NCBI GenBank assembly: GCA_030605045.1
Contig: JAUWBK010000001.1
Span: 1-33,933, forward strand
Direction: 5' to 3'
Origin: Dehalococcoidia bacterium
GTDB taxonomy: Bacteria; Chloroflexota; Dehalococcoidia; Dehalococcoidales; RBG-16-60-22
Length of the DNA stretch: 33,933 bases
Part shown: positions 4,390-26,667 of the stretch, piece after piece
Position numbering within the stretch: position 1 is the first letter of the stretch
Layout of the letters: every line of letters starts with the position of its first letter
Notes under the pieces: generated by a model
Told to the model about the DNA's origin: nothing
Database searches by the model: none
The model's input: the letters and a program-made list of their open reading frames with translations, nothing else
Made by a program: the position numbers and the translations under genes

Positions 4390-4878
4390 CTAATCTTCCT
4401 TATCAGGACTTAACTGCTTAGGATTGTGCTCAACCGTATCTATAACACGTCTCATTCTGCGAATAGGACCAATCATACTAAACTCAAGACAGAGTATCAT
4501 CCTCTTAGGGAGACGACTTGGCGGTATTGTAATAAGCCCTTTGGCGTCCACTGTTACAGTTATAGGAGCCGATATAGGCTCTATTACTAAGTTTTCTAAT
4601 AACGGCCCCGTCGGTTCAAGCCCCGCCTCATGAACTCTTAGGGGTGCCTCAGTCAAAGTTTTATGCCAAAACAGCCAATGTTTCTTTTTAAGATGCAATG
4701 CTGCTCTCAAAATAAATTCCCTGCGGTCTGGTCTATGATTGATGAACTCTAGGTCAGCCCACAAATATATGTGAGGGTCAGCACCAACATACACTTGAAT
4801 AATTGGCTTTTCTGATATCATTGAAGGAAGAGTATTAGGTCGTGCTTTACTATATGGTTTCTTAATTTCTATTTCCAT
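4390..4878 (-). CDS. hypothetical protein, 162 aa, family not recognised
   Basis: GGAGAGG precedes ATG 4878 (MEIEIKKPYSK...) by 3 nt (4879-4881). The longer 187-aa version (ATG 4953) would start at or upstream of the predicted TSS. AT-rich relative to its neighbours. Confidence 0.55.
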   Translation of the reverse strand: MEIEIKKPYSKARPNTLPSMISEKPIIQVYVGADPHIYLWADLEFINHRPDRREFILRAALHLKKKHWLFWHKTLTEAPLRVHEAGLEPTGPLLENLVIEPISAPITVTVDAKGLITIPPSRLPKRMILCLEFSMIGPIRRMRRVIDTVEHNPKQLSPDKED

Positions 4879-4959
4879 GTGCCTCTCCATAAGTTTACGC
4901 CAGAAAAACCGAAGCACAGGAAACCCATCCATAAACGCACCGACGATATCCATACCCCT

Positions 4960-5010
4960 ATTCTACTACTTAACATATATCTTGACCATCTCCTTCACCT
5001 GTGTTATAAT
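4960..5010. promoter_or_regulatory. back-to-back promoters sharing one -35 region
   Basis: Plus strand: TTGACC 4982-4987, 17-nt spacer, TGtTATAAT with the -10 at 5005-5010. Minus strand: TGGTCA 4988-4983, 17-nt spacer, TAGAAT 4965-4960. Confidence 0.45.
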
Positions 5011-5043
5011 TCGCATACGACTATCTTGTATGGAGGTTATATT

Positions 5044-5259
5044 ATGGCTTTCCCAGACGATGTTGTAAAAACCTGCTTTGAAATTGTTCATAATAAATGC
5101 GAGCGATGCAGGAAAACATTGGCGTGGAGTGATAGGGGTCCTGCAGGTGTGGGGACATGGCAAGCTCACCATATTGACGGGGACACCGATAATAATACCC
5201 ATTCTAACTGTAAAATTCTTTGCTGGTCTTGTCATAAACCAACCTTCTCAAACTCGTAA
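5044..5259 (+). CDS. small HNH endonuclease (71 aa)
   Basis: GGAGG 5032-5036 then ATG 5044. The product has CERC ... QAHHIDGDTDNNTHSNCKILCWSCH, i.e. a CxxC/CxxC zinc finger plus the H-N-H pattern. Confidence 0.7.
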   Translation: MAFPDDVVKTCFEIVHNKCERCRKTLAWSDRGPAGVGTWQAHHIDGDTDNNTHSNCKILCWSCHKPTFSNS

Positions 5260-5499
5260 ATTCTGGTCAATTCGCACAAGTACTGCCTTGAGTATGAATG
5301 CATAAAAAGCCAATATCTTGCTTGAGCAAACGGGGCTAAGATTAACTTCACCTGCTGTCGGGGTATGTAGGCAGGGTCTGACACACACAAGGTCGCTATC
5401 GCTACCTGTTAGCCATCCAAATGACCACGAATATGGGCATGGGCCACCTCCCCATTTGTAGAAATGGGGAAGCTTCCCTGGGTCAAGTATATAATCCCT

Positions 5500-5511: not shown

Positions 5512-7176
5512 AGCACGTTGGAAATGGGACATATCGAGTCCAGTAACAACATCAATTACGGCCGGTATTCCTTCTCGGTTAACTTTCAAGGCTTCTTCCA
5601 GAGCTGGCTTTATTTCAGAAGGTTTTTCAATCCTTTTCCCGTAGCATTGACACGCCTCTGCCCACTTTACGAAGTCAGGTTGTACTTTGAATGTGCTGGT
5701 GTCCCATCCCACGGCTTTCATCTGATTATGTTTTACCCAGCCAAGGGCGGAGTTGTTCAGTACTATCCATGTGCAGCCTACGTTATACTGCGCGGCCGTG
5801 GGCAACTCCTTCATATACATTTGAAATGCTCCGTCACCGGTGACACAGACCACGTTCTTTTCTGGCCTGGTCAATTTGGCGGCAATTGCTCCGACGACAC
5901 CCATGCCCATACACGTTTGTTCAGCAACTGGCACACATTCCGATCTGTCCTGCACCTTGTAATACGGGAAGCAATATGACCAACAATCCTGAGAACCGTT
6001 CTCACTGACTAAGATTGTGTTCTCGCCAAACACTTTGCTCAACTCATATACGGTACGTTTTGCCGGAATCGGGGTAACTTCAACCACGCATTCCGCCTCC
6101 ACCTCTATTTCAAATTCCTTTTTTGCTTTTATAATCTCCTTTACCCGTGGTATTTCCTTGAAAATACTTTCCTTCTCAACTTTCCCCTTTGCGGCAGCGC
6201 TCAATTGCCTTAAAACGATTTGGGCATCGCCAACAATACCGACATCGGGTATCCAATTTCTCCCTATTTCAAATGAAGAGATGTCGATTTGGATGAATTT
6301 GGCCCCTTTCGGAAAATCCTTCCATTCATGTGTTTGGAAACTCTCGTTCCGAGTTCCAACGGTGATAATAAGATCGGCGTCAGAATAAACCGTCTTGCCA
6401 ACTTTAGTTCTATACAGACCGCATAGCCCAAGAGCCAAGGGGTGCTCTTCAGACAGGATTCCTCTACCACCGGGGGTGGTCATAAATGGTATGCCCAATA
6501 ATTCAATGAATTCTCTAAATTCCTCCGAGGCTCCGGATTGTACTGCCCCATTACCCGCTACCATCACCGGTCGCTTAGCCTTTAAAATTAGCGCTACGGC
6601 TTCATTGATTAGTTTTGGGTCGCCGGCGGTACGAACTTTTTTGGCTGGCACATATTCCGGTAAACTAACCTCGGCAAATGCATACTTGGAGGTACCGCTG
6701 ACATCATAGGGTATCTCCAGGAAAACTGGTCCTGGCTGACCGTTCATCGCTACCGAAAATGCCCTACGGATGAACCAAGGAATCCTTTCTGCGTAAGGAA
6801 TGCGAGCACTCCATTTGGTTATGGGTTTCATCATCGCCGTCTGGTCAGATTCCTGGAAATCTGCCATGCCTTCCGTTTTTTGAGATATAGCGGTACATAT
6901 TATTACCAGTGGTGAGCAACCAGAGTATGCCTCCAATACACTGGGAACCAAGTTGGCTACCCCGGGCCCGGTGCTGGCAGTGCAAACACCTGGCTTTCCA
7001 CTCAGTCTGGAGTAAGCCATTGCCATGAATGGTGCTGACCCCTCATATCTAAGATTTATTGATGTTATTCCGGGAGTTTTTTCGGCGAATAACTGCAGGC
7101 CGGTATCCCCTAGCCCAAAGACAAACTCAACTCCCTCAGACTTAACCATGTTGACAATTGCTTCCCACAAGTTCAT
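5506..7176 (-). CDS. thiamine-diphosphate-dependent enzyme, acetolactate synthase-like family (specific reaction not assignable)
   Basis: GGAGG 7191-7187 then ATG 7176 (MNLWEAIVNMVKSEGVEFVFG). N-terminal Pyr domain with catalytic-Glu context LRYEGSAPFMAMAYSR, GPGVANL, and C-terminal TPP-binding GDGAFQM...LNN. Confidence 0.85.
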   Translation of the reverse strand: MNLWEAIVNMVKSEGVEFVFGLGDTGLQLFAEKTPGITSINLRYEGSAPFMAMAYSRLSGKPGVCTASTGPGVANLVPSVLEAYSGCSPLVIICTAISQKTEGMADFQESDQTAMMKPITKWSARIPYAERIPWFIRRAFSVAMNGQPGPVFLEIPYDVSGTSKYAFAEVSLPEYVPAKKVRTAGDPKLINEAVALILKAKRPVMVAGNGAVQSGASEEFREFIELLGIPFMTTPGGRGILSEEHPLALGLCGLYRTKVGKTVYSDADLIITVGTRNESFQTHEWKDFPKGAKFIQIDISSFEIGRNWIPDVGIVGDAQIVLRQLSAAAKGKVEKESIFKEIPRVKEIIKAKKEFEIEVEAECVVEVTPIPAKRTVYELSKVFGENTILVSENGSQDCWSYCFPYYKVQDRSECVPVAEQTCMGMGVVGAIAAKLTRPEKNVVCVTGDGAFQMYMKELPTAAQYNVGCTWIVLNNSALGWVKHNQMKAVGWDTSTFKVQPDFVKWAEACQCYGKRIEKPSEIKPALEEALKVNREGIPAVIDVVTGLDMSHFQRAE

Positions 7177-7261
7177 TATTGCATCACCTCCTTTGACTAA
7201 TATTCTACTAGCCTTCTCGTCTATTTGGAAGTACCTCATATAAAAATGGGTGGATTATTGG

Positions 7262-7291
7262 TTGACAGACTATTTTAGGAAGTATTAGAAT
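7262..7291 (+). promoter_or_regulatory. sigma70-like promoter upstream of hisF
   Basis: TTGACA 7262-7267, 18-nt spacer, TAGAAT 7286-7291. This leaves a leader of about 140 nt. Confidence 0.4.
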
Positions 7292-7434
7292 ACGGAAAGC
7301 GGTTACCGCTATCCGTTCATTATAAATTATAGTCATAAGCTTTGGAGACGAGGAAGCGGACATTGACGCCGAAAATCCCGCCGTCAGCACTGTTATGGAA
7401 AACCAAAATCTAATCAGGTTTGAGGAGTGGTGAG

Positions 7435-8205
7435 ATGAAAGAGGTGAGAATCATACCCTGTCTTGATGTGAAAGATGGGAGGGTAGTCAAGGGGGTAAAT
7501 TTTGTCGACCTGAGGGATGCCCGTGACCCGGTAGAAGCGGCGGGGGCCTACTGCCGGGAAGGGGCTGATGAACTTGTCTTTCTCGACATTTTCGCTACGG
7601 TGCAGAATAGAAAAACGAGATTGGAGTGGGTGAAAAAGGTCTGTGATGTCGTCACCGTGCCTTTTGCCGTCGGTGGTGGCATAGGCAGCACTGAGGATAT
7701 GAGGGCATTAATTGACCTCGGTGTGGACAAGGTCTCGATAAATACGGCTGCGGTCAGGAATCCCGAACTCATAAGACAAGCCACGAAGGAATTTGGCAAG
7801 GAGAGGCTTGTGGTTGCCATTGATGGCCAGAAGAACCCGCTGGATAGCGGCCTCCCTCGACTAGAGGTAGTGGTTAAGAGTGGTAGCGAGCCCACGGGGA
7901 TGGGAATTGTGGAATGGGCGAAGCGGGTCGAGGAACTGGGTGCGGGGGAGATTTTGCTCACCAGCAAGGATGCCGATGGCACCAAAGAAGGCTACGACTT
8001 GGAAATGACGAAAGCGGTGGCTGAGGCAGTAACCATCCCGGTTATCGCTTCCGGAGGTGCCGGCAAATTAGAGCATCTTTATGAAGCGGTAACCATTGGC
8101 AAAGCGGCGGCAGTTTTGGCGGCTTCAGTCTTCCACTTTGGGGAGATATCAATACCTGAAGCCAAAAAATACCTTCAAGAAAGGGGAATACCCGTAAAAA
8201 CATAA
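7435..8205 (+). CDS. hisF: imidazole glycerol phosphate synthase cyclase subunit HisF (or a close paralogue)
   Basis: GAGGAG 7422-7427 then ATG 7435. [75 protein letters not shown]. Confidence 0.85.
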
Positions 8206-8216
8206 GGAGGTACAAG

Positions 8217-9782
8217 ATGTCCTTAAGCAAACCGAATGCCAGTGCGGCAACGAGAACCAGAAATAGAGTATCAGCTGCACCTATCTCAGGGATGTGTGTT
8301 GCTTGCCTCGATAGCTGTCTTGGCCTATGTGAAGTAGGGCAATCTGCTTTAAGGGGTAGAGAGGCAATGTATCCACAGCCCTTTGGTAAGGTCAGTGTTG
8401 GAGCCGAAAAGGATTACCCGGTAGACTATTCTCATTTCAACATTCATGGTAGCTGTGTTGGGGCTTATGGTGTAGACGCCGACTCTGATAAAGCTACTTT
8501 CCAAGCCGTTGATGCTACGACAAAGGTTGGGCTCAAAGGTAAGGAAATAAAATTGAGGGTTCCTTTCTTCACCGGTGCCCTGGGTTCAACCGAGATAGCC
8601 CGGGTTTATTGGGAAGGAGCTGCCATAGGAGCTGCCATCTGCGGGACCATTATAATCTGCGGAGAGAATGTCTGTGGCATGGACCCTGATGCTGAAATAA
8701 AGAATGGGCGGGTCATCAAGTCTCCTGAATTAGACAGAAGGGTGAGAACCTTCCAGGATTGGTATGATGGCTACGGACTGTTGTTAGTCCAGGCAAATGT
8801 AGAGGATAGTCGCCTCGGTGTACTCGAATATGCGATAGAGAAACTTGGTGTTCAAGGAGTTGAGATAAAGTGGGGGCAAGGGGCAAAGGATATCGGTGGC
8901 GAGGTAAAGCTTCCGTCCCTAGAGAGAGCACGTCAGCTAAAGAGCAGAGGTTATCCTGTATTTCCTGACCCTGACGACCCGGTAGTTCAGGAAAGCTTTC
9001 ACATAGGAGAAATTGAAGAATTTGAGCGTCACTCACGACTGGGCATGGTAGACGAGGAATCATTCCATAGGGAGGTGGAAAGACTTCGAAGTGCAGGCGC
9101 CAAGTACGTTACCTTGAAGACAGGGGCCTATAGACCAGCCGACCTGGCTCGGGCCGTTAAGTTTTCTTCTGACACTAAAATAGACCTGCTCACCGTGGAT
9201 GGTGCCGGTGGAGGCACCGGAATGAGTCCGTGGCGGATGATGAATGAGTGGGGAATACCTACCGTGTATCTGGAGTGTCTCCTGTATGATTATCTTTCTC
9301 GGCTGGAAAAGAAAGGAGCTTATATTCCCAGTTGTGCCATTGCCGGCGGTATTGCTCTGGAGGATCAGGTATTCAAGGCTATTGCTTTAGGTGCTCCGTT
9401 TATAAAAGCAGTATGTCTCGGTCGCTCCACCCTCACTGCGGTTACCGTAGCTAAAGCCAACGCGGAAAAGCTTCGTAAGGAACATGAGAATGCAGAGCCC
9501 TACGAGAGAGCTTTGATGCAAACTTTTGTCAATGTGGCTCAGCTCAAGGCAAAATACGGAAAGGACTTTGCCCGAATTCCTCCAGCAGCGATTGGTATGT
9601 ATAACTACTATGAGCGATTAACCACCGGTCTGCAGCAACTTATGGCCGGAGCCAGGAAATTCCGCTTAGACCTAGTTAAGCGGGACGATCTTACGGCTCT
9701 CACCAGGGAGGCAGCGGAGATTTCTGGTATCCCTTACGTGATGGACGCTGACAAAGAGGAAGTGGACAAGATTTTAGCCTGA
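8217..9782 (+). CDS. glutamate synthase-related FMN-domain protein (stand-alone GltB domain-2 type)
   Basis: AAGGAGG sits 7 nt upstream of ATG 8217. N-terminal Cys cluster CVACLDSCLGLCEV. FMN-domain signature TVDGAGGGTGMSPW. 11-nt gap after hisF. Confidence 0.8.
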   Translation: MSLSKPNASAATRTRNRVSAAPISGMCVACLDSCLGLCEVGQSALRGREAMYPQPFGKVSVGAEKDYPVDYSHFNIHGSCVGAYGVDADSDKATFQAVDATTKVGLKGKEIKLRVPFFTGALGSTEIARVYWEGAAIGAAICGTIIICGENVCGMDPDAEIKNGRVIKSPELDRRVRTFQDWYDGYGLLLVQANVEDSRLGVLEYAIEKLGVQGVEIKWGQGAKDIGGEVKLPSLERARQLKSRGYPVFPDPDDPVVQESFHIGEIEEFERHSRLGMVDEESFHREVERLRSAGAKYVTLKTGAYRPADLARAVKFSSDTKIDLLTVDGAGGGTGMSPWRMMNEWGIPTVYLECLLYDYLSRLEKKGAYIPSCAIAGGIALEDQVFKAIALGAPFIKAVCLGRSTLTAVTVAKANAEKLRKEHENAEPYERALMQTFVNVAQLKAKYGKDFARIPPAAIGMYNYYERLTTGLQQLMAGARKFRLDLVKRDDLTALTREAAEISGIPYVMDADKEEVDKILA

Positions 9783-19763: not shown

Positions 19764-19803
19764 TTTTAACGAAGTTGTAATGAGCGTGTAACGATATCTT
19801 AAC
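19764..19803 (+). promoter_or_regulatory. array 3: four 11-bp-phased TTGTAAC-like direct repeats
   Basis: TTTTAAC 19764, TTGTAAT 19775, GTGTAAC 19786, TCTTAAC 19797. The spacing is exactly 11 bp, and the orientation matches the downstream + strand gene. Confidence 0.5.
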
Positions 19804-19822
19804 CTTTTGGGCTTTTTTTTAA

Positions 19823-19851
19823 TTGACAGGATGGTATCGAAAGGTTAGAAT
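19823..19851 (+). promoter_or_regulatory. sigma70-like promoter for the secreted-protein gene
   Basis: TTGACA 19823-19828, 17-nt spacer, TAGAAT 19846-19851. A T8 tract at 19813-20 lies just upstream. Confidence 0.5.
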
Positions 19852-20572: not shown

Positions 20573-21685
20573 TCAATCATAGCTGTAGGTGAGAGGGTAT
20601 AGTTCGCTGCCCGGCAAGTCCGCTCGGCCATGCAGTTTTTCAGAATACCATATGTAACTATTATCCACGAGAACCTGGAAACCACCGGCAGCACCATATA
20701 ACTCCAGGTTAGTTAATGCAACGGTACCATTAGGTGCATATAGGACTGCGTCTACAACAGGCCCTTCTAACGTAATATTGCTGGAAAGTGACGTGATAAC
20801 GGGAATAGCTTCCGAACCATAACCCCCTCCAAATATCTCGACCTCTCCCTCGCAGATAATATGCTCATAACCCTCAATATGACCATTGTTGACTTGAACG
20901 TAGCCGAGAACGTATAGAGGACCTTCCAGTACCACCGTCGTCCAAGCATCTACTATCAGGTTTCCGGTAATGTATAGAGGTCCCACATTATAAGTATCCC
21001 CACCACTATATTGTAGGTCACCATTGTGGGTGCCGCCTTCTTTAGCGATGGTCTCATACAGTTCGGCGTTGGTGATAGGAAATGTCAAGTTAGCGCTGTA
21101 TTCAAAAACCTCGCCATTAACGTATTCTTGGCCACTAATCGTGCTTACAGCGGTAGCATCACCATTAACCGCGGTTTGACCTTTCTTGGGTCCTGCAATA
21201 TCTATAGTATTATTGGAATGTATATCTCCATCGCCCGAATCAGGGAATGAATCCACTACTGAATTGTAAATGCTAAGAGAATCTTTTGCAGCCAGAGCGA
21301 AGGCAAAGGCACCATGACTGAGGTTCACAATTGCTATAATCCTTGTCCGGCCACAGCCGCCACCACTGGCCGTGGAGTTAACACTAAAGATACCTCCACC
21401 CTGATATATAGCAGTTACATTTACGGTTCGGCCGTTGAGCTCAAAACTTTCCTCTAACGGCGTTTCTACATAAGTGCCTGAGTCCCCATATATCTTAGCC
21501 GTGGCATAGACCAGGCCGGCATCTGCGGAATAACTATTCAAGGTTTGACACTCAATTGACTGGTGATAGCCAAGGTTGGTAAATGAGCTCCGTAACAATG
21601 GAATTACCAGCAAACTGCCTACGGCCAGTAACATTAGGGCCATTATCAGGACTTGTCCAGATTCCCGGTTCTTGAACAACTTCAT
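20573..21685 (-). CDS. PilX-N-like minor pseudopilin with a large extracellular domain of possible beta-helix type
   Basis: ATG 21685 gives MKLFKNRESGQVLIMALMLLAVGSLLVIPLL (a GTG at 21706 overlapping the upstream stop is an alternative). It has a hydrophobic N-terminal helix without Glu5. The rest is rich in short repeats such as GDIHSNNTIDIAG, GPLYITGNLIV, GPLYVLGYVQV. Confidence 0.6.
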   Translation of the reverse strand: MKLFKNRESGQVLIMALMLLAVGSLLVIPLLRSSFTNLGYHQSIECQTLNSYSADAGLVYATAKIYGDSGTYVETPLEESFELNGRTVNVTAIYQGGGIFSVNSTASGGGCGRTRIIAIVNLSHGAFAFALAAKDSLSIYNSVVDSFPDSGDGDIHSNNTIDIAGPKKGQTAVNGDATAVSTISGQEYVNGEVFEYSANLTFPITNAELYETIAKEGGTHNGDLQYSGGDTYNVGPLYITGNLIVDAWTTVVLEGPLYVLGYVQVNNGHIEGYEHIICEGEVEIFGGGYGSEAIPVITSLSSNITLEGPVVDAVLYAPNGTVALTNLELYGAAGGFQVLVDNSYIWYSEKLHGRADLPGSELYPLTYSYD

Positions 21686-21702
21686 CTTTAGCTTCCCTGT
21701 CC

Positions 21703-22227
21703 TCACTCTTCTGCTCCTGTCCCGATCCTTTGACTAATTTCGTAAATCCTGGTTAACCCGCCTTTGTCTTTCACCGCTCTTACCGTTAGCTGATAGAGAT
21801 TGATAGTGGCATTCAGCGTATTAAATGTCGTATTGTCAGTATCTATGTAATCGGCAATTAATGTCTCTGAGACCAAAGTCTGTGAAGAGTCATATACCTT
21901 ACGCTTTAGCCTGGTGCCATTAAATGTATAATTGACACTGTAATCATTGTTCTCGTCCATATCAATCGGGACGCTAAGAGATAGTGGGAAACCGTTAGGG
22001 TCACCAGCCGTGATATTCCTTGCCGTCTGAACATCACGAGAAATCCAGTGTCCCGCGTTCTGTACCTGGGGCAAGACAGTATTTTGCTCGGCAGCTTGTC
22101 CGTGATTCAGCAACAATGTTGTCGTGGCAGTTGCAATTGCAACGACAACAAGGGCCATTATCCCTATCCCAATTACTGCCTCGAGTAAGGTAAATCCTTT
22201 TTCAGTCATTTTCACCATTTTAATCAT
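21703..22227 (-). CDS. prepilin-type N-terminal cleavage/methylation domain protein (type IV pilin / pseudopilin-like)
   Basis: Class III signal peptide ...MTEKG|FTLLEAVIGIGIMALVVVAIA with Glu at +5. Possible starts at 22227, 22218 or 22209. Confidence 0.75.
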   Translation of the reverse strand: MIKMVKMTEKGFTLLEAVIGIGIMALVVVAIATATTTLLLNHGQAAEQNTVLPQVQNAGHWISRDVQTARNITAGDPNGFPLSLSVPIDMDENNDYSVNYTFNGTRLKRKVYDSSQTLVSETLIADYIDTDNTTFNTLNATINLYQLTVRAVKDKGGLTRIYEISQRIGTGAEE

Positions 22228-22660
22228 TCAGTTTATAGAATGTAATAATTAGCTTTCCCTGCTCATTACGTTTAACCGTTACATTTACGCTTTGCAGTTC
22301 AAAACCGGTCTCATTACTGCTAATAACGATTTGCGGGGTATTTATTTCGATAGAATATCCGGCCGACAACAAATCGGCAGGAATATCTATTGGCTCGTAA
22401 CGGTTTGCCGGGTCACCAGGGTTATAATCGGCTACAGCGACATAATCTTGAACTTTAATGTATTCTATTTGTGATTTAGCCAAGCTCTCCGCAGCCACTC
22501 TCTCCTGGCTTACCTCAATGCCTTTAAACGTGGTTGTCATGCCACTCATAAAAGCAGTCGTAACCACTGCCACAATAGCCAGGCCGACTAAAATTTCAAT
22601 AAATGACAATCCTTGTTCACTCTTCATTTGTCTAACTAGCCTTATAAGTTGCATTGCCAT
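22220..22660 (-). CDS. prepilin-type N-terminal cleavage/methylation domain protein (pseudopilin-like)
   Basis: ...MKSEQG|LSFIEILVGLAIVAVVTTAF with Glu at +5. The start is ATG 22660 or 22627. It is the first gene of a three-gene overlapping operon. Confidence 0.7.
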   Translation of the reverse strand: MAMQLIRLVRQMKSEQGLSFIEILVGLAIVAVVTTAFMSGMTTTFKGIEVSQERVAAESLAKSQIEYIKVQDYVAVADYNPGDPANRYEPIDIPADLLSAGYSIEINTPQIVISSNETGFELQSVNVTVKRNEQGKLIITFYKLND

Positions 22661-22863
22661 TGAGTTCCCAGTTTAAAGCTTATTAATCTCAATTAAATAC
22701 TATAGCTATACGTGTAAAAAAGCAACCCTCAAAATGGTGAAAAAAGTATGAAAAATCCGCTTCACTCACCTCTGAGAGCCTCACCACCTCTTGTTGTTTA
22801 GCTGTCTTGGCGCCAACTGCTTACTGGGGTTACTTGCCCCGACCACCAATTCTACCTAGGACT

Positions 22864-22900
22864 ATTATACCATTCTAATAGTATGAGCGAGTGGTTACAA
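22864..22900 (-). promoter_or_regulatory. candidate promoter of the pseudopilin operon
   Basis: On the minus strand: TTGTAA (22900-22895, the proximal repeat unit), 17-nt spacer, TAGAAT (22877-22872). An overlapping TGgTATAAT has its -10 at 22869-22864. Confidence 0.4.
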
Positions 22901-22974
22901 TGAGGTTAAGAACAGTCCCGAAATGTTAAGGAAATGTTACAAAGAGGTTACAAGGAAGTTACAATTCGATACAA
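22894..22974 (-). promoter_or_regulatory. array 1: seven TTGTAAC-like direct repeats, mostly 11-bp phased, read on the minus strand
   Basis: On the plus strand: GTTACAA at 22894, 22936, 22947 and 22958; GTTAAG at 22905 and 22925; GATACAA at 22968. The spacings are 11, 20, 11, 11, 11 and 10. Confidence 0.55.
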
Positions 22975-23063
22975 ACACGAGGCAGCGGTAAGAGTCCCCG
23001 TAGCTACAGTCAAAGACGGTGACGTAGCATCTTATTAGCTATCTAATCATAGGTATCGTAGCC

Positions 23064-23092
23064 TTGATAATCACCTTAGTCAGTGTTAGAAT
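23064..23092 (+). promoter_or_regulatory. sigma70-like promoter for the kinase/regulator operon
   Basis: TTGATA 23064-23069, 17-nt spacer, TAGAAT 23087-23092. Confidence 0.45.
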
Positions 23093-23154
23093 TCAACCGC
23101 CTGAAGTATATTGGGTGAAGCTATAGTTCGTATACTATATAGAAGGGCAAACCT

Positions 23155-25377
23155 ATGACACTGCGTAGGAAGACACTGTTCATCATCGGGGCGACGTTCT
23201 ACGGCGTGATTATCCTGTTATTCTTCATATCACGTAACATCTTGCTGGACAGTTTCGTCGAACTGGAGAACCAAGATGTCTACCAGAATACTGAGCGAGT
23301 GCTGAGTACTTTGTCACATGAAGTCTCTCAGTTGGAGGCCACCACCGGTGATTGGGCAGCGTGGGATGATACCTACGCCTTCATTGAGGACGCTAACACC
23401 GAATATATTGAGTCGAATCTCATTGATAAAACTTTCATCGAGTTAAGGCTGAACTTAATGATGTTTATTGACTCCGCTGGCCAGACCGTCTTCGGCAAGG
23501 CTTTTGATCTGAATAATGAAGAAGAAGTACCTGTTCCTCAGAGCCTACAAGGACACCTTACCATCGGGGATATTCTGCTGACCCATCCTGACACTGAGAG
23601 CAGCATCTCCGGAATTGTCCTTCTTCCCGAAGGCCCGATGCTTATTGCCTCCCGTCCCATTTTGACCAGTGAAGATGAGGGTCCTATTCGTGGGGCACTG
23701 GTTATGGGACGCTTCCTGGATGCTACCGAAATGGAACGGTTTGCCGAGCTAACGCATTTGCCTCTCATCATGCATCGGTTCAGTGATGCGCAGATTCCTC
23801 CCGACTTCCAAGCCGTGCGTTCATCTTTGTCTGAAGAGAGACCGATTATCGTCCAACCACTAAATGAACAATCTATTGCCGGATACACCTTGATAGAAGA
23901 CATCTATGGGAAGCCAAGCCTGGTGCTGAGAGTGGATATGCCCAGAGACATCTATCAGCAGGGCCAGACCACGATTTCTTACCTTATCTTGTCGATAGTA
24001 GGGGTTGGTCTGATATTTGGCTTGACGACCATATTGCTTTTAGAGAGGCAGGTTCTGTCCCGGTTGTTTCACCTAAGCAAAAGTGTCAGTAGTATCGGCA
24101 CCAGTGGTGACCTCTCGGCGCGGGTATCAGTAGAAGGAGAGGATGAAATTTCCAACTTAGCGGGTACCATCAATGGCATGCTGGCCGCGCTGCAACAGTC
24201 CGAAAGTGAGCTAAAGGAGAGCGAAGAGCGCTACCGTCTGCTCGCTGAGAACGTAAGGGATGTCATCTGGACCATGGATATTAACCTGAGGTTTACCTAC
24301 ATCAGTCCTTCCGTCACCTCTATGCTAGGCTACAGCGTTGAGGAAGCAATGTCTCTCCCGTTCGAGGAACTTTTAACTCCTTCCTCTCTTGAGGCAGTCA
24401 AGAAGGCTTTTGCCGAAACACCGACTGTAGAGAGCATAAAGCAGGAAGGCCTTTCTTGGTCACCGACGCTGGAACTTGAGCTAAAGTGCAAGGATGGTGC
24501 CACTATCTGGGTAGAGGTCACGTCAACTTTCCTGCCTGACGCAGATGGCCAGCCTATTGGCTTTGTTGGAGTCGGACGTAACATCACCGAGCGAAAACGG
24601 GCGGAGGAAAAACTGCAAGAGCTTTACCATGAGGAAAAAACCCTGAGACAGGAATTGGAAGCAGAAATAAACAAAAGAGTCGAATTCACCAGGGTACTAG
24701 TCCATGAGTTAAAAACCCCAATCACTCCGGTGCTGGCTTCGAGCGAGTTACTGCTTGAAGAGCTCGAAGGGGGCCCCCTGCTCGACTTGGCGCAGAACAT
24801 TAGCCAGGGCGCCTACAATCTGAATCAGAGGATTGACGAACTTCTTGACCTGGCAAGGGGTGAAATAGGAATGCTTCGGCTGGAACCCGAATCAATGGAC
24901 CCGAGGCAACTACTCAAAGGCATAGTTGATAGTCTGATGCCCTTAGCCTTGAAAAATAGCCAAGTGCTAAGTTTTGAGTCCCCTTCTTCCCTGCCTTCAG
25001 TCTGGGCTGATGAAGACCGCTTACGCCAAGTTGTGCTCAATCTCATTAACAATGCCTTCAAATTTACTCCGGCGGGAGGGAGAATCACCTTACGAGCCAA
25101 GGAGGACGGTGCTAATCTTGTAGTGGAAGTTCAGGATACGGGTCGCGGGATAAGTAAGGAAGAACAAGAGCGGCTGTTTGAACCCTATCACCGGTTAGAA
25201 AGTGAAGTAGGACATCTTAGCGGGTTGGGGTTGGGGTTGAGCCTTTCCAAGATGTTAGTGGAACTTCACGGTGGAAAGATATGGGTGAAAAGCCAGAAGG
25301 GCAAAGGTAGTACCTTCGGCTTTTCCCTACCTTTAGAAGCTACCGCTCAGAGAGAAAAAAGTGTTAAAACAGAGTAA
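23155..25377 (+). CDS. sensor histidine kinase: TM, CHASE4-like periplasmic domain, TM, HAMP, PAS, HisKA, HATPase
   Basis: N-terminal TM FIIGATFYGVIILLFFI. CHASE4-like GDWAAWDDTYAFIEDAN...LMMFIDSAGQTVFGKAFD. Second TM ISYLILSIVGVGLIFGLTTILLL. PAS ERYRLLAENVRDVIWTMD. H-box LVHELKTPITP. N/G boxes LINNAFKFTP, DTGRGI, GLGLGLS. Confidence 0.9.
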   Translation: MTLRRKTLFIIGATFYGVIILLFFISRNILLDSFVELENQDVYQNTERVLSTLSHEVSQLEATTGDWAAWDDTYAFIEDANTEYIESNLIDKTFIELRLNLMMFIDSAGQTVFGKAFDLNNEEEVPVPQSLQGHLTIGDILLTHPDTESSISGIVLLPEGPMLIASRPILTSEDEGPIRGALVMGRFLDATEMERFAELTHLPLIMHRFSDAQIPPDFQAVRSSLSEERPIIVQPLNEQSIAGYTLIEDIYGKPSLVLRVDMPRDIYQQGQTTISYLILSIVGVGLIFGLTTILLLERQVLSRLFHLSKSVSSIGTSGDLSARVSVEGEDEISNLAGTINGMLAALQQSESELKESEERYRLLAENVRDVIWTMDINLRFTYISPSVTSMLGYSVEEAMSLPFEELLTPSSLEAVKKAFAETPTVESIKQEGLSWSPTLELELKCKDGATIWVEVTSTFLPDADGQPIGFVGVGRNITERKRAEEKLQELYHEEKTLRQELEAEINKRVEFTRVLVHELKTPITPVLASSELLLEELEGGPLLDLAQNISQGAYNLNQRIDELLDLARGEIGMLRLEPESMDPRQLLKGIVDSLMPLALKNSQVLSFESPSSLPSVWADEDRLRQVVLNLINNAFKFTPAGGRITLRAKEDGANLVVEVQDTGRGISKEEQERLFEPYHRLESEVGHLSGLGLGLSLSKMLVELHGGKIWVKSQKGKGSTFGFSLPLEATAQREKSVKTE

Positions 25378-25382
25378 AGGTT

Positions 25383-26066
25383 ATGAAAGTCCTTATCATT
25401 GAAAATGACCAGACAATTGTAGAAGCTATTTCCCTAGCTCTCCAGCTAAGTTGGCCTGAAGCTAAATTAGTCTCCACTCATCTCGGAGAGAGGGGAATAG
25501 AGCTGGTAGAGAGTGAAAATCCTGATGTTGTCATCCTTGACCTGGGGCTTGATGATCTAAGTGGCTTTGAGGTGTTGAAGCAGATACGTCTTTTTTCCAC
25601 TGTCCCCATCCTCATTCTGACGGTGAGGTCAGATGAAGCTGATGTAGTCAAAGGACTGGAGTGGGGAGCCGACGATTATGTGGTTAAACCTTTTCGGCAA
25701 CTGGAACTTCTGTCACGGATACAAGCTTTGACACGACGGGGAGGTCTTCTAGTTGAAGAAGCACCTCTGGTTTGCGGACAATTGCGCTTTAACCCGGCTA
25801 CTTGGCAGTTATTTCATGGTGAAAAGGAGATAAATCTCACTCCTACCGAAGGTTCTATTCTCGGTCACCTGATGAAAAAAGCCGGTCGAGTGGTAACCCA
25901 CTCCAGCCTTGCCGAATCGGTATGGGGTGAGAATTACCCGGATGTGACGAGCAGCCTCAAGGTTTATATCCATCACCTGCGGGAAAAACTGGAAGCTGAC
26001 CCGAGTAATCCGCAGATTATTCTCACCAAGTCTGGCATAGGCTACTTACTGGCAAAGCCAGACTAA
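25383..26066 (+). CDS. OmpR/PhoB-family response regulator (receiver plus winged-helix DNA-binding domain)
   Basis: MKVLIIENDQ, phospho-acceptor context VVILDLGLDD, DYVVKPF, and C-terminal winged helix LTPTEGSILGHLM...VYIHHLREKLE...GIGYLL. 5-nt gap after the kinase gene. Confidence 0.9.
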   Translation: MKVLIIENDQTIVEAISLALQLSWPEAKLVSTHLGERGIELVESENPDVVILDLGLDDLSGFEVLKQIRLFSTVPILILTVRSDEADVVKGLEWGADDYVVKPFRQLELLSRIQALTRRGGLLVEEAPLVCGQLRFNPATWQLFHGEKEINLTPTEGSILGHLMKKAGRVVTHSSLAESVWGENYPDVTSSLKVYIHHLREKLEADPSNPQIILTKSGIGYLLAKPD

Positions 26067-26096
26067 CTGAATATCTAACCACTTATTTTTACCAAA

Positions 26097-26137
26097 TTGT
26101 AACTACTTTGTAACCTTTTTATAACCTTTTTGTAACC
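26097..26137 (+). promoter_or_regulatory. array 2: four exactly 11-bp-phased TTGTAAC(C) direct repeats
   Basis: TTGTAAC 26097, TTGTAACC 26108, TTATAACC 26119, TTGTAACC 26130. It begins 31 nt after the regulator's stop and lies upstream of the + strand gene at 26281. Confidence 0.55.
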
Positions 26138-26280
26138 ACAGGCGTGTAGACTAGAGAGTAGAAATAACGATGCGAATACCAGTTTTCGAGAGCAAAAAGA
26201 ACGGGATAGAAGTTAACTGCTTCCTTAAAATGGGAGAGAATTCGAGTTGGTAAGCCTGGCCAAAATTTCAAGGAGAAAGC

Positions 26281-26667
26281 ATGCTGGACGAAGCTGAAGT
26301 TCCCAAGCAAATTAGCCCAGAAATGGAAGAGGCGGCCACCCAGAAGGCAATAATCAGAGCCAGAGCGGCAAGGTGGGACCTTGATGTGGCTGTCTTCTTG
26401 TTCGCCATTTTGATTATTATCATAATCCTACTCTTCCAGGAAGTGGTCATTGAGGTGGTGGCACCAGTCGCCATTTTTGGCTTAGCCACGGTCTGGCTCA
26501 TAGGGTGGAGACGAGGGAAACAACTATATCAGCGTTTCTACGATGAAGAGCTATTGAAATTGGAGCAAGGGTCAAAGGAGTCAATTGAGGGAGCGGTTAA
26601 GGAAGTGGTGGAAACAGTAGAGGATATAGTTAAGAAGGCACTGCGCGAGAGATGGCAGAATGAGTAA
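26281..26667 (+). CDS. small membrane protein (128 aa, two predicted TM helices, acidic coiled tail); function unknown
   Basis: AAGGAG 26270-26275 then ATG 26281. Hydrophobic segments VAVFLFAILIIIIILLF and VVAPVAIFGLATVWLIGW. Confidence 0.6.
   Translation: MLDEAEVPKQISPEMEEAATQKAIIRARAARWDLDVAVFLFAILIIIIILLFQEVVIEVVAPVAIFGLATVWLIGWRRGKQLYQRFYDEELLKLEQGSKESIEGAVKEVVETVEDIVKKALRERWQNE

Follow-up and report, generated by a model that had tools for sequence, protein, structure and literature searches.

A probable OmpR/PhoB-type operator of direct heptamer repeats upstream of a pseudopilin operon in Dehalococcoidia

Sequence comparisons indicate that a run of direct heptamer repeats (array 1) upstream of the pseudopilin operon in the window (the whole 33,933-nt stretch of DNA that was analysed) is a genuine cis-regulatory operator under selection. 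Array 1 is rather likely to be a six-unit operator, probably made up of three dimer sites, that serves a Dehalococcoidia-specific clade of OmpR/PhoB-family regulators and activates the pseudopilin operon. The most likely binder is the response regulator encoded 2.4 kb away (RR1, 25383-26066, plus strand), which would be phosphorylated by the adjacent CHASE4 kinase, and its paralogue on contig C79 (RR2, 81% identical) may also bind the arrays. Binding, activation rather than repression, the -10 element used, and the paralogue that binds are what we infer from these data. According to the proposed mechanism, phosphorylated regulator dimers would bind head-to-tail to TTGTAAC/TTAAC heptamers with 11-bp spacing. 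The proximal pair of units (22911-22894) would cover approximately -40 to -23 of a promoter that lacks a -35 element and has a weak -10, TACTAT, and for this reason the bound regulator would replace the -35 contact and recruit RNA polymerase. At about -60 to -93, a further three helical turns upstream, the four distal units would probably add cooperative binding. The output would be transcription of the minus-strand pseudopilin operon from a start near 22871.

Array 1 is read on the minus strand, where its heptamers start at 22974, 22964, 22953, 22942, 22931, 22911, and 22900, giving steps of 10, 11, 11, 11, 20, and 11 bp. An earlier note on this DNA had reported seven units, and all of them were recovered with the coordinates, sequences, and spacing that it gave. 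The minus strand runs TTGTATC-gaa-TTGTAAC-ttcc-TTGTAAC-ctct-TTGTAAC-attt-CCTTAAC-atttcgggactgt-TCTTAAC-ctca-TTGTAAC-cactcgctca-TACTAT-TAGAAT-gg-TATAAT. Tandem Repeats Finder delimited a period-11 core at 22936-22964, and the pattern GTTACAAN4GTTACAA, with up to two mismatches, had 9 matches in the window (0.15 expected), a number reached in 0 of 100 shuffles. Unit 1 (TTGTAAC, 22894-22900), the putative promoter-proximal half-site, carries the same 10-mer, TTGTAACCAC, as the proximal unit of array 2, and together with unit 2 (TCTTAAC, 22905-22911) it would form the proximal dimer site. A 13-nt gap (22912-22924, minus strand) is the source of the 20-bp step that leads from this pair to the distal block, a run of four units with an 11-bp period (22925-22964), which consists of CCTTAAC at 22931-22925 and TTGTAAC at 22942-22936, 22953-22947, and 22964-22958 and probably represents two further dimer sites. 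The seventh unit, TTGTATC (22968-22974), is separated from its neighbour by a 10-bp step. The distances of the other five of these six units from the proximal one are 11, 31, 42, 53, and 64 bp, or 1.05, 2.95, 4.0, 5.05, and 6.1 turns at 10.5 bp per turn, and the 20-bp step would restore the helical phase of the units.

The source genome is represented by a 1.05-Mb partial Dehalococcoidales assembly, 62% complete, in which a position-weight scan found only four arrays of at least five units. Three of them flank the CHASE4 kinase and OmpR-type regulator genes of the window, and the fourth is on contig C32. Array 2 (26086-26152, plus strand), with 4-5 contiguous units, lies directly past the RR1 stop codon and precedes a decayed pseudo-receiver remnant and the gene for a 128-aa membrane protein; its last TTGTAAC (26130-26136) is followed after 10 nt by TAGACT (26147-26152). 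Array 3 (19764-19851, plus strand) has degenerate units at 19764, 19775, 19786, and 19797 and was also scored as 19732/19764-19803 in the genome scan. Its position is of the class I type: a complete TTGACA-17-TAGAAT promoter (19823-19851) lies downstream of the units and serves the gene of a secreted 158/161-aa protein. The fourth array (contig C32, 5547-5476, minus strand) shows steps of 11, 11, 11, 21, and 11, and TATACT follows after a further 10 nt. Downstream of this array come an HTH_17 gene, genes for PilB/GspE (512 aa) and PilC/GspF (402 aa), and three pseudopilin genes; the pilus machinery, missing from the pilin cassette of the window, therefore has the same operator as that cassette.

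TTGTAAC reads toward the downstream gene in all four arrays and in the arrays of relatives. This consistent orientation bears out the earlier proposal that array 1 is aimed at the pseudopilin operon and not at the kinase gene. The CHASE4-HAMP-PAS-HisKA-HATPase sensor kinase (23155-25377, plus strand) has its own promoter, TTGATA-17-TAGAAT at 23064-23092, which had been proposed from the sequence and was found again by the promoter scan, with a TG before it. Autoregulation of the kinase operon by array 1 was rejected, since this full promoter is 90 bp away and the kinase genes of relatives are not preceded by arrays. Outside the source genome, a pattern of three TTGTAAC units with an 11-bp period and up to two mismatches was present in 40 of the 301 genomes sampled from the order, representing 28 of 138 genera, and the reversed pattern used as a control had zero matches across all 301 genomes.

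The position of the repeats relative to a -10-like hexamer is fixed across this family of arrays. In 21 of 38 non-redundant arrays, TAnnnT occurs exactly 10 nt past the last unit, and in 4 more it is found at 11 nt, while the background frequency of 1.2% per position predicts about 0.5 occurrences among 38 arrays. The commonest array-linked hexamer is TAGACT. Unit starts cluster at -17, -28, -48, -59, -70, and -81 from the TAnnnT hexamer, a design in which a gap separates a proximal pair from a distal block of up to four units. When TACTAT (22878-22883, minus strand) is taken as the -10, array 1 matches all six of these positions, unit 1 being at -17, unit 2 at -28, and the distal block at -48, -59, -70, and -81. 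TACTAT is thus the -10 predicted from the family register; it lies 6 nt upstream of TAGAAT and places the start near 22871. Steps of 20-21 or 31-32 occur at the gap position in at least 25 of the 38 arrays, and neither sequence conservation of the gap across the family nor a peak of units at -39 was found. The 20-bp step had earlier been taken for a break in the 11-bp register. Since the units of array 1 and of the family share fixed positions, it is instead a recurrent and conserved part of a 2+4-unit operator.

If the -10 hexamer occupies -12 to -7, the proximal pair covers approximately -40 to -23, with unit 2 at about -40 to -34 and unit 1 at about -29 to -23 relative to the predicted start. 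A -35 element would lie 16-18 nt upstream of TACTAT; the sequence there reads ACCTCA, CCTCAT, or AACCTC and contains nothing resembling TTGACA. The family consensus at this place is AACCnnnT. The putative site thus overlaps the -35 region at a fixed distance from the -10, and a usable -35 hexamer is lacking, as in class II promoters. The class II geometry suggested in the earlier note is therefore retained as to its kind, the proximal site overlapping a -35 region without consensus, but the -10 chosen there was off by 6 nt. The family register also reassigns the proximal TTGTAA, previously interpreted as a -35 hexamer, to the promoter-proximal half of a dimer site at about -40 to -23.

Array 1 carries three overlapping -10 candidates. 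Besides TACTAT, these are TAGAAT at 22877-22872 and the extended -10 TGgTATAAT at 22872-22864 (together 22864-22877, minus strand). According to a rather unlikely alternative, sigma factor reads TTGTAA as a weak -35 located 17 nt before TAGAAT, or TGgTATAAT drives transcription; the upstream units would then serve as an activator array of class I or class II, and the start would be at about 22865 or 22857. Both elements exist as first described: TTGTAA is exactly 17 nt upstream of TAGAAT (22900-22872, minus strand), a combination recovered by the promoter scan that scores 9/12 as an ordinary promoter, and the overlapping TGgTATAAT is a perfect extended -10 that would need no activator. Moreover, TAGAAT and TGgTATAAT are both conserved in G290, the closest syntenic relative, where a 13-bp deletion removes the proximal unit of array 1. 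After this deletion, the remaining units are at -29, -49, -60, -71, and -82 from TATAAT, which corresponds to the family register in its N11 variant. It may therefore be possible for polymerase to use the downstream extended -10, and transcription from array 1 may begin at more than one position. Against the sigma-read TTGTAA stands the family register itself, in which the hexamer follows the last unit by 10-11 nt and not by 16-17 or 24 nt; among the 38 arrays, TAnnnT was counted 2, 1, and 1 times at offsets of 16, 17, and 24 nt, versus 21 times at 10 nt. Array 1 also misses the family positions if either TAGAAT or TATAAT is taken as the -10. The preferred reading therefore retains TACTAT as the predicted -10 under a regulator-bound proximal pair. 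An ECF-sigma promoter with GTAAC as the -35 was rejected, as no conserved element was found 16-17 nt downstream of the units.

Several relatives lend support to the array-linked hexamer as the -10. In five loci (L003, L004, L016, L018, and L023), the start codon ATG of the target open reading frame lies 9-10 nt past the hexamer, as it also does past array 2 of G290. This leaves no space for another promoter, so that transcription must start at the hexamer, and the mRNAs of these pseudo-receiver targets are probably nearly leaderless.

Comparison with G290, which is from the same family as the source genome, provided evidence of selection on the repeats. Its locus L111 (contig C19, positions 5783-8562) is syntenic to positions 22660-26300 of the window, with the same layout of pilin genes, kinase gene, and arrays and with 91% identity across the intergenic region. 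In those parts of arrays 1 and 2 that the two genomes have in common, 0 of 63 heptamer positions differed, as opposed to 11 of 53 positions in the spacers, the gap, and the -10 (Fisher p ~1e-4). The distal block of array 1 has no substitutions in its heptamers and one in each spacer. The heptamer of unit 2 is identical, with 2 substitutions in the 13-nt gap, and array 2 is kept with 0 heptamer changes. These counts point to purifying selection on the heptamers. The seventh unit of array 1 is TTCTATT in G290, with two changes within the heptamer. Since it also lies outside the family positions, where no peak of units occurs, it is regarded as non-functional and is probably outside the functional operator. 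The earlier description of a seven-unit array can thus be kept for six units, which are on family positions, but not for the seventh. It is hardly conceivable that the array has no protein-binding role, being a chance repeat, a slippage product, or a set of phased T-tracts that curve the DNA. T-rich spacers phased at 11 bp could indeed bend DNA, but selection acts on the heptamers and not on the T-rich spacers, and the fixed register to the -10 and the recurrence of the heptamer in 28 genera, with no match in the reversed control, also contradict such an origin.

A regulator bound at array 1 could also act negatively. We consider it improbable that array 1 is a repressor operator over a constitutive TGgTATAAT or TTGTAA/TAGAAT promoter, which would keep the pilin operon off until a signal is lost. 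Promoter elements that do not depend on an activator are present in array 1, and some OmpR-family regulators, such as RpaB at sites centred near -5, repress from positions close to the start (PMC6525291). However, the units are located upstream of the -10 and leave the -10 and the start uncovered. Most family promoters, with TAGACT, no -35, and no TGn motif, would be very weak without an activator, and a constant distance of 10 nt to the -10 is typically seen where an activator contacts polymerase, as at the pho box. Activation by a bound regulator thus remains the preferred reading.

The target operon of array 1 (20573-22660, minus strand) encodes two N_methyl prepilin-type proteins of 146 and 174 aa and a third protein of 377 aa. 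From the predicted start, an untranslated leader of about 210 nt (22661-22871, minus strand) precedes the first pseudopilin gene, and the leaders of pilin-type targets in relatives (L009, L047, and L096) are also 190-235 nt long. A riboswitch or other structured leader was considered and rejected: Rfam search of 22500-23200 gave no match at E <=1, the folding z-score of the array 1 leader was +0.42, indicating no unusual stability, and comparison of the leaders of four pilin-type targets revealed no shared structure.

In the source genome and its relatives, array-linked genes include minor-pilin cassettes and PilB/PilC operons headed by an HTH_17 gene, as well as genes for SipW-type signal peptidase with camelysin/TasA-like proteins, stand-alone pseudo-receivers, and small zinc-ribbon proteins. 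The 158-161-aa secreted protein is the target of array 3 here and of an array in L010, and the 128-aa membrane protein is the target of array 2 here and of arrays in L003 and L004. The common theme of the array targets is cell-surface structures. The SipW-type peptidase and camelysin/TasA-like proteins, with the signal motif GGGTWAYFSD, are preceded by arrays in L015 (2350-3603), L021 (5898-7808), L087, and L085, and a second kind of fibre would thus also come under this type of operator.

Past array 2, the window contains a 27-codon open reading frame (26170-26253, plus strand; MRIPVFESKKNGIEVNCFLKMGENSSW), and its counterpart remnant in G290 has 49 codons, with the ATG 10 nt past the -10. 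The window frame looks like a decayed stand-alone pseudo-receiver of the kind that follows the array in L003, L004, L016, L018, and L023. The receiver-like proteins of these loci (at L003:5851, L004:4715, L016:4894, L018:3738, and L023:4292) comprise 112-136 aa and have weak GlnR_1st or Response_reg matches, below the cut-offs.

RR1 contains a receiver domain (Response_reg, 1.3e-23) and a winged-helix domain (Trans_reg_C, 2.5e-23) and is the candidate array binder. It resembles KdpE, RegX3, MtrA, and PmrA, members of a family that binds direct repeats. Its scores were below the cut-off of every NCBIfam equivalog, and RR1 should be considered a generic member of the OmpR/PhoB family. The relatives of RR1 all come from uncultured Dehalococcoidales or Dehalococcoidia, and in many genomes arrays are located 60-150 nt past its homologues. 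The association was recovered from both directions. Among loci fetched by RR1 homology alone, an array was found just downstream of the regulator gene in L003, L004, L009, L010, L016, L018, L021, L035, L047, and L048, and in L015, L020, and L023 it was seen by eye after the regulator. Conversely, 9 of the 28 loci fetched by the DNA pattern alone have a same-orientation RR1 homologue (59-71% identity) that ends 60-120 nt upstream of the array. Arrays follow 21 of 58 homologues with at least 55% identity to RR1, versus 0 of 31 below 55%. All array-linked regulators belong to one clade with 99/99 support, within which the trait is patchy, as many members and whole sub-clades have no downstream array. 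After one regulator of this relationship (67% identity), the repeats are TTGTCAC/TTGTCAT instead of TTGTAAC (L019, 5719-5777), which may reflect a specificity change within the clade.

Among the features expected of an OmpR/PhoB-family operator, three are present: two or more direct repeats (core of 6-8 bp, period of 10-11 bp), a regulator linked to them, and several target genes that share the motif. The predicted role of the regulator family as array binder is well supported. The earlier note had named the product of 25383-26066 as the regulator to be footprinted on array 1. Linkage of arrays to this family across genomes agrees with that choice, but RR1 as the binder is less certain, because the genome also encodes RR2 and because G290 keeps constrained arrays without an adjacent regulator. 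The RR2 gene and the gene of its 637-aa kinase, paralogues of the window pair, occupy contig C79 (2681-5283), with RR2 at 4600-5280, and no arrays are located near them. In G290, the RR1 gene is missing from the syntenic place, the kinase stop codon being directly followed by array 2, and the only orthologue present is that of RR2 (91% identical to RR2 of contig C79). RR1 is consequently not the sole possible binder. RR1 and RR2 differ at 42 positions, 16 of which are within residues 179-209, around the recognition helix. This helix reads IHHLREK in RR1 and IRRLR(E/Q)K in nearly all array-linked homologues, and RR1 may have diverged in specificity. Recognition-helix position 201 (E/Q versus T) was evaluated as a marker of array linkage and rejected: it tracks only phylogeny and is therefore not independent evidence.

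The heptamers might accordingly be bound by a protein other than RR1, either RR2 or the small HTH_17 protein encoded at the head of the operons for the pilus machinery. We hold this to be unlikely, though it deserves more weight than the other alternatives. The constrained arrays of G290, which has an RR2 orthologue and no syntenic RR1, would agree with it, as would the atypical recognition helix of RR1 with HH instead of RR. On the other hand, arrays never occur at RR2-type loci, and in many genomes RR1-like genes are followed by an array. Of about 38 arrays, only 2 have an HTH_17 gene as the target. The G290 assembly is 87% complete, and another regulator could be absent from it. RR1 is retained as the likeliest binder.

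Dehalococcoidia are abundant and mostly uncultured subsurface bacteria, and to our knowledge their gene regulation is almost unexplored apart from the dehalogenase genes. Search of a literature library found no paper tying Dehalococcoidia to type IV pili and a response regulator, and the search for TTGTAAC returned only primer sequences. Tentatively, and with less confidence than we place in the reading of array 1 itself, the arrays could belong to a shared, previously undescribed Dehalococcoidia regulon for surface appendages. Such a regulon would have its own 2+4 operator in fixed register to a weak TAGACT-type -10, and several paralogous two-component systems would read it. Its targets would be the type IV pilus machinery and minor-pilin cassettes, fibres of the TasA/camelysin type, and the pseudo-receiver genes with nearly leaderless mRNAs. 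The paralogous regulators could replace each other, since G290 keeps constrained arrays in the absence of the adjacent regulator. The stand-alone pseudo-receivers may feed back on signalling. The main value of the arrays lies in annotation and regulon mapping in Dehalococcoidia. Their signature predicts co-regulated surface-structure genes in hundreds of metagenome-assembled genomes and supplies candidate promoters and start sites, while the kinase, the regulator, and the operator make up a defined set open to testing in vitro or in a heterologous host.

Mechanistically, array 1 is most likely a standard OmpR/PhoB-type activator site that involves no new principle. The pho box of Escherichia coli PhoB consists of 7-bp direct repeats with 4-bp spacers, ends approximately 10 bp upstream of the -10, and replaces the -35. 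Array 1 has the same 7+4 unit, 11-bp period, and head-to-tail direct repeats with extra boxes upstream, and its proximal pair likewise ends 10 nt before the -10 of a promoter without a -35 element. Unlike the pho box, its heptamer is TTGTAAC rather than CTGTCAT, the kinase is of the CHASE4 type and not PhoR, and a 9-10 bp gap, conserved in the array family, separates the proximal pair from the distal block. Assignment to the Pho regulon was rejected: the PhoB model TIGR02154 scored 150 bits against a cut-off of 296 and the PhoR model TIGR02966 scored 135 against 334, and the targets are pilins and surface proteins instead of genes for phosphate uptake or scavenging. PstS was not found in the source genome, which is 62% complete, so that a pst target may escape detection.

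At ompF and ompC, phosphorylated OmpR fills hierarchically three contiguous 20-bp sites that end near -40, have a 10-bp period, and lie upstream of a recognisable -35. Array 1 would likewise have three tandem dimer sites upstream of, and abutting, the -35 region, and here too the phosphorylated regulator would fill them in a hierarchical order. It differs in that its proximal site would replace the -35 and a gap separates the distal sites.

The cyanobacterial HLR1 element bound by RpaB is (G/T)TTACA(T/A)(T/A) repeated twice, 2 nt apart (PMC6525291). The plus-strand unit of the arrays, GTTACAA(A/G/T), is almost an HLR1 octamer, and an OmpR-family binder is known for HLR1 and predicted here. The effect of HLR1 depends on its position. 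In contrast to HLR1, array 1 has a period of 11 bp and not 10, six units and not two, and a site centred near -31 and not at -51 or -5. A cyanobacterial origin and membership in the RpaB/HLR1 system were rejected in view of the 11-bp period, the RR1 score of 146 bits against the RpaB cut-off of 330, and the restriction of all RR1 relatives to Dehalococcoidia.

PHO boxes of Streptomyces PhoP and GlnR boxes comprise 2-7 direct-repeat units of 11 nt, and the GlnR box is gTnAc-n6-GaAAc (PMC3561978). The Dehalococcoidia arrays share with these operators the multi-unit structure, the 11-nt period, and the site-to-site variation in unit conservation, and their core GTAAC fits the GlnR a-site gTnAc. 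They differ from the Streptomyces operators in phylum and regulon and in having a phosphorylatable two-component regulator with its own kinase, and both the 2+4 architecture and the distance to the -10 are fixed in Dehalococcoidia.
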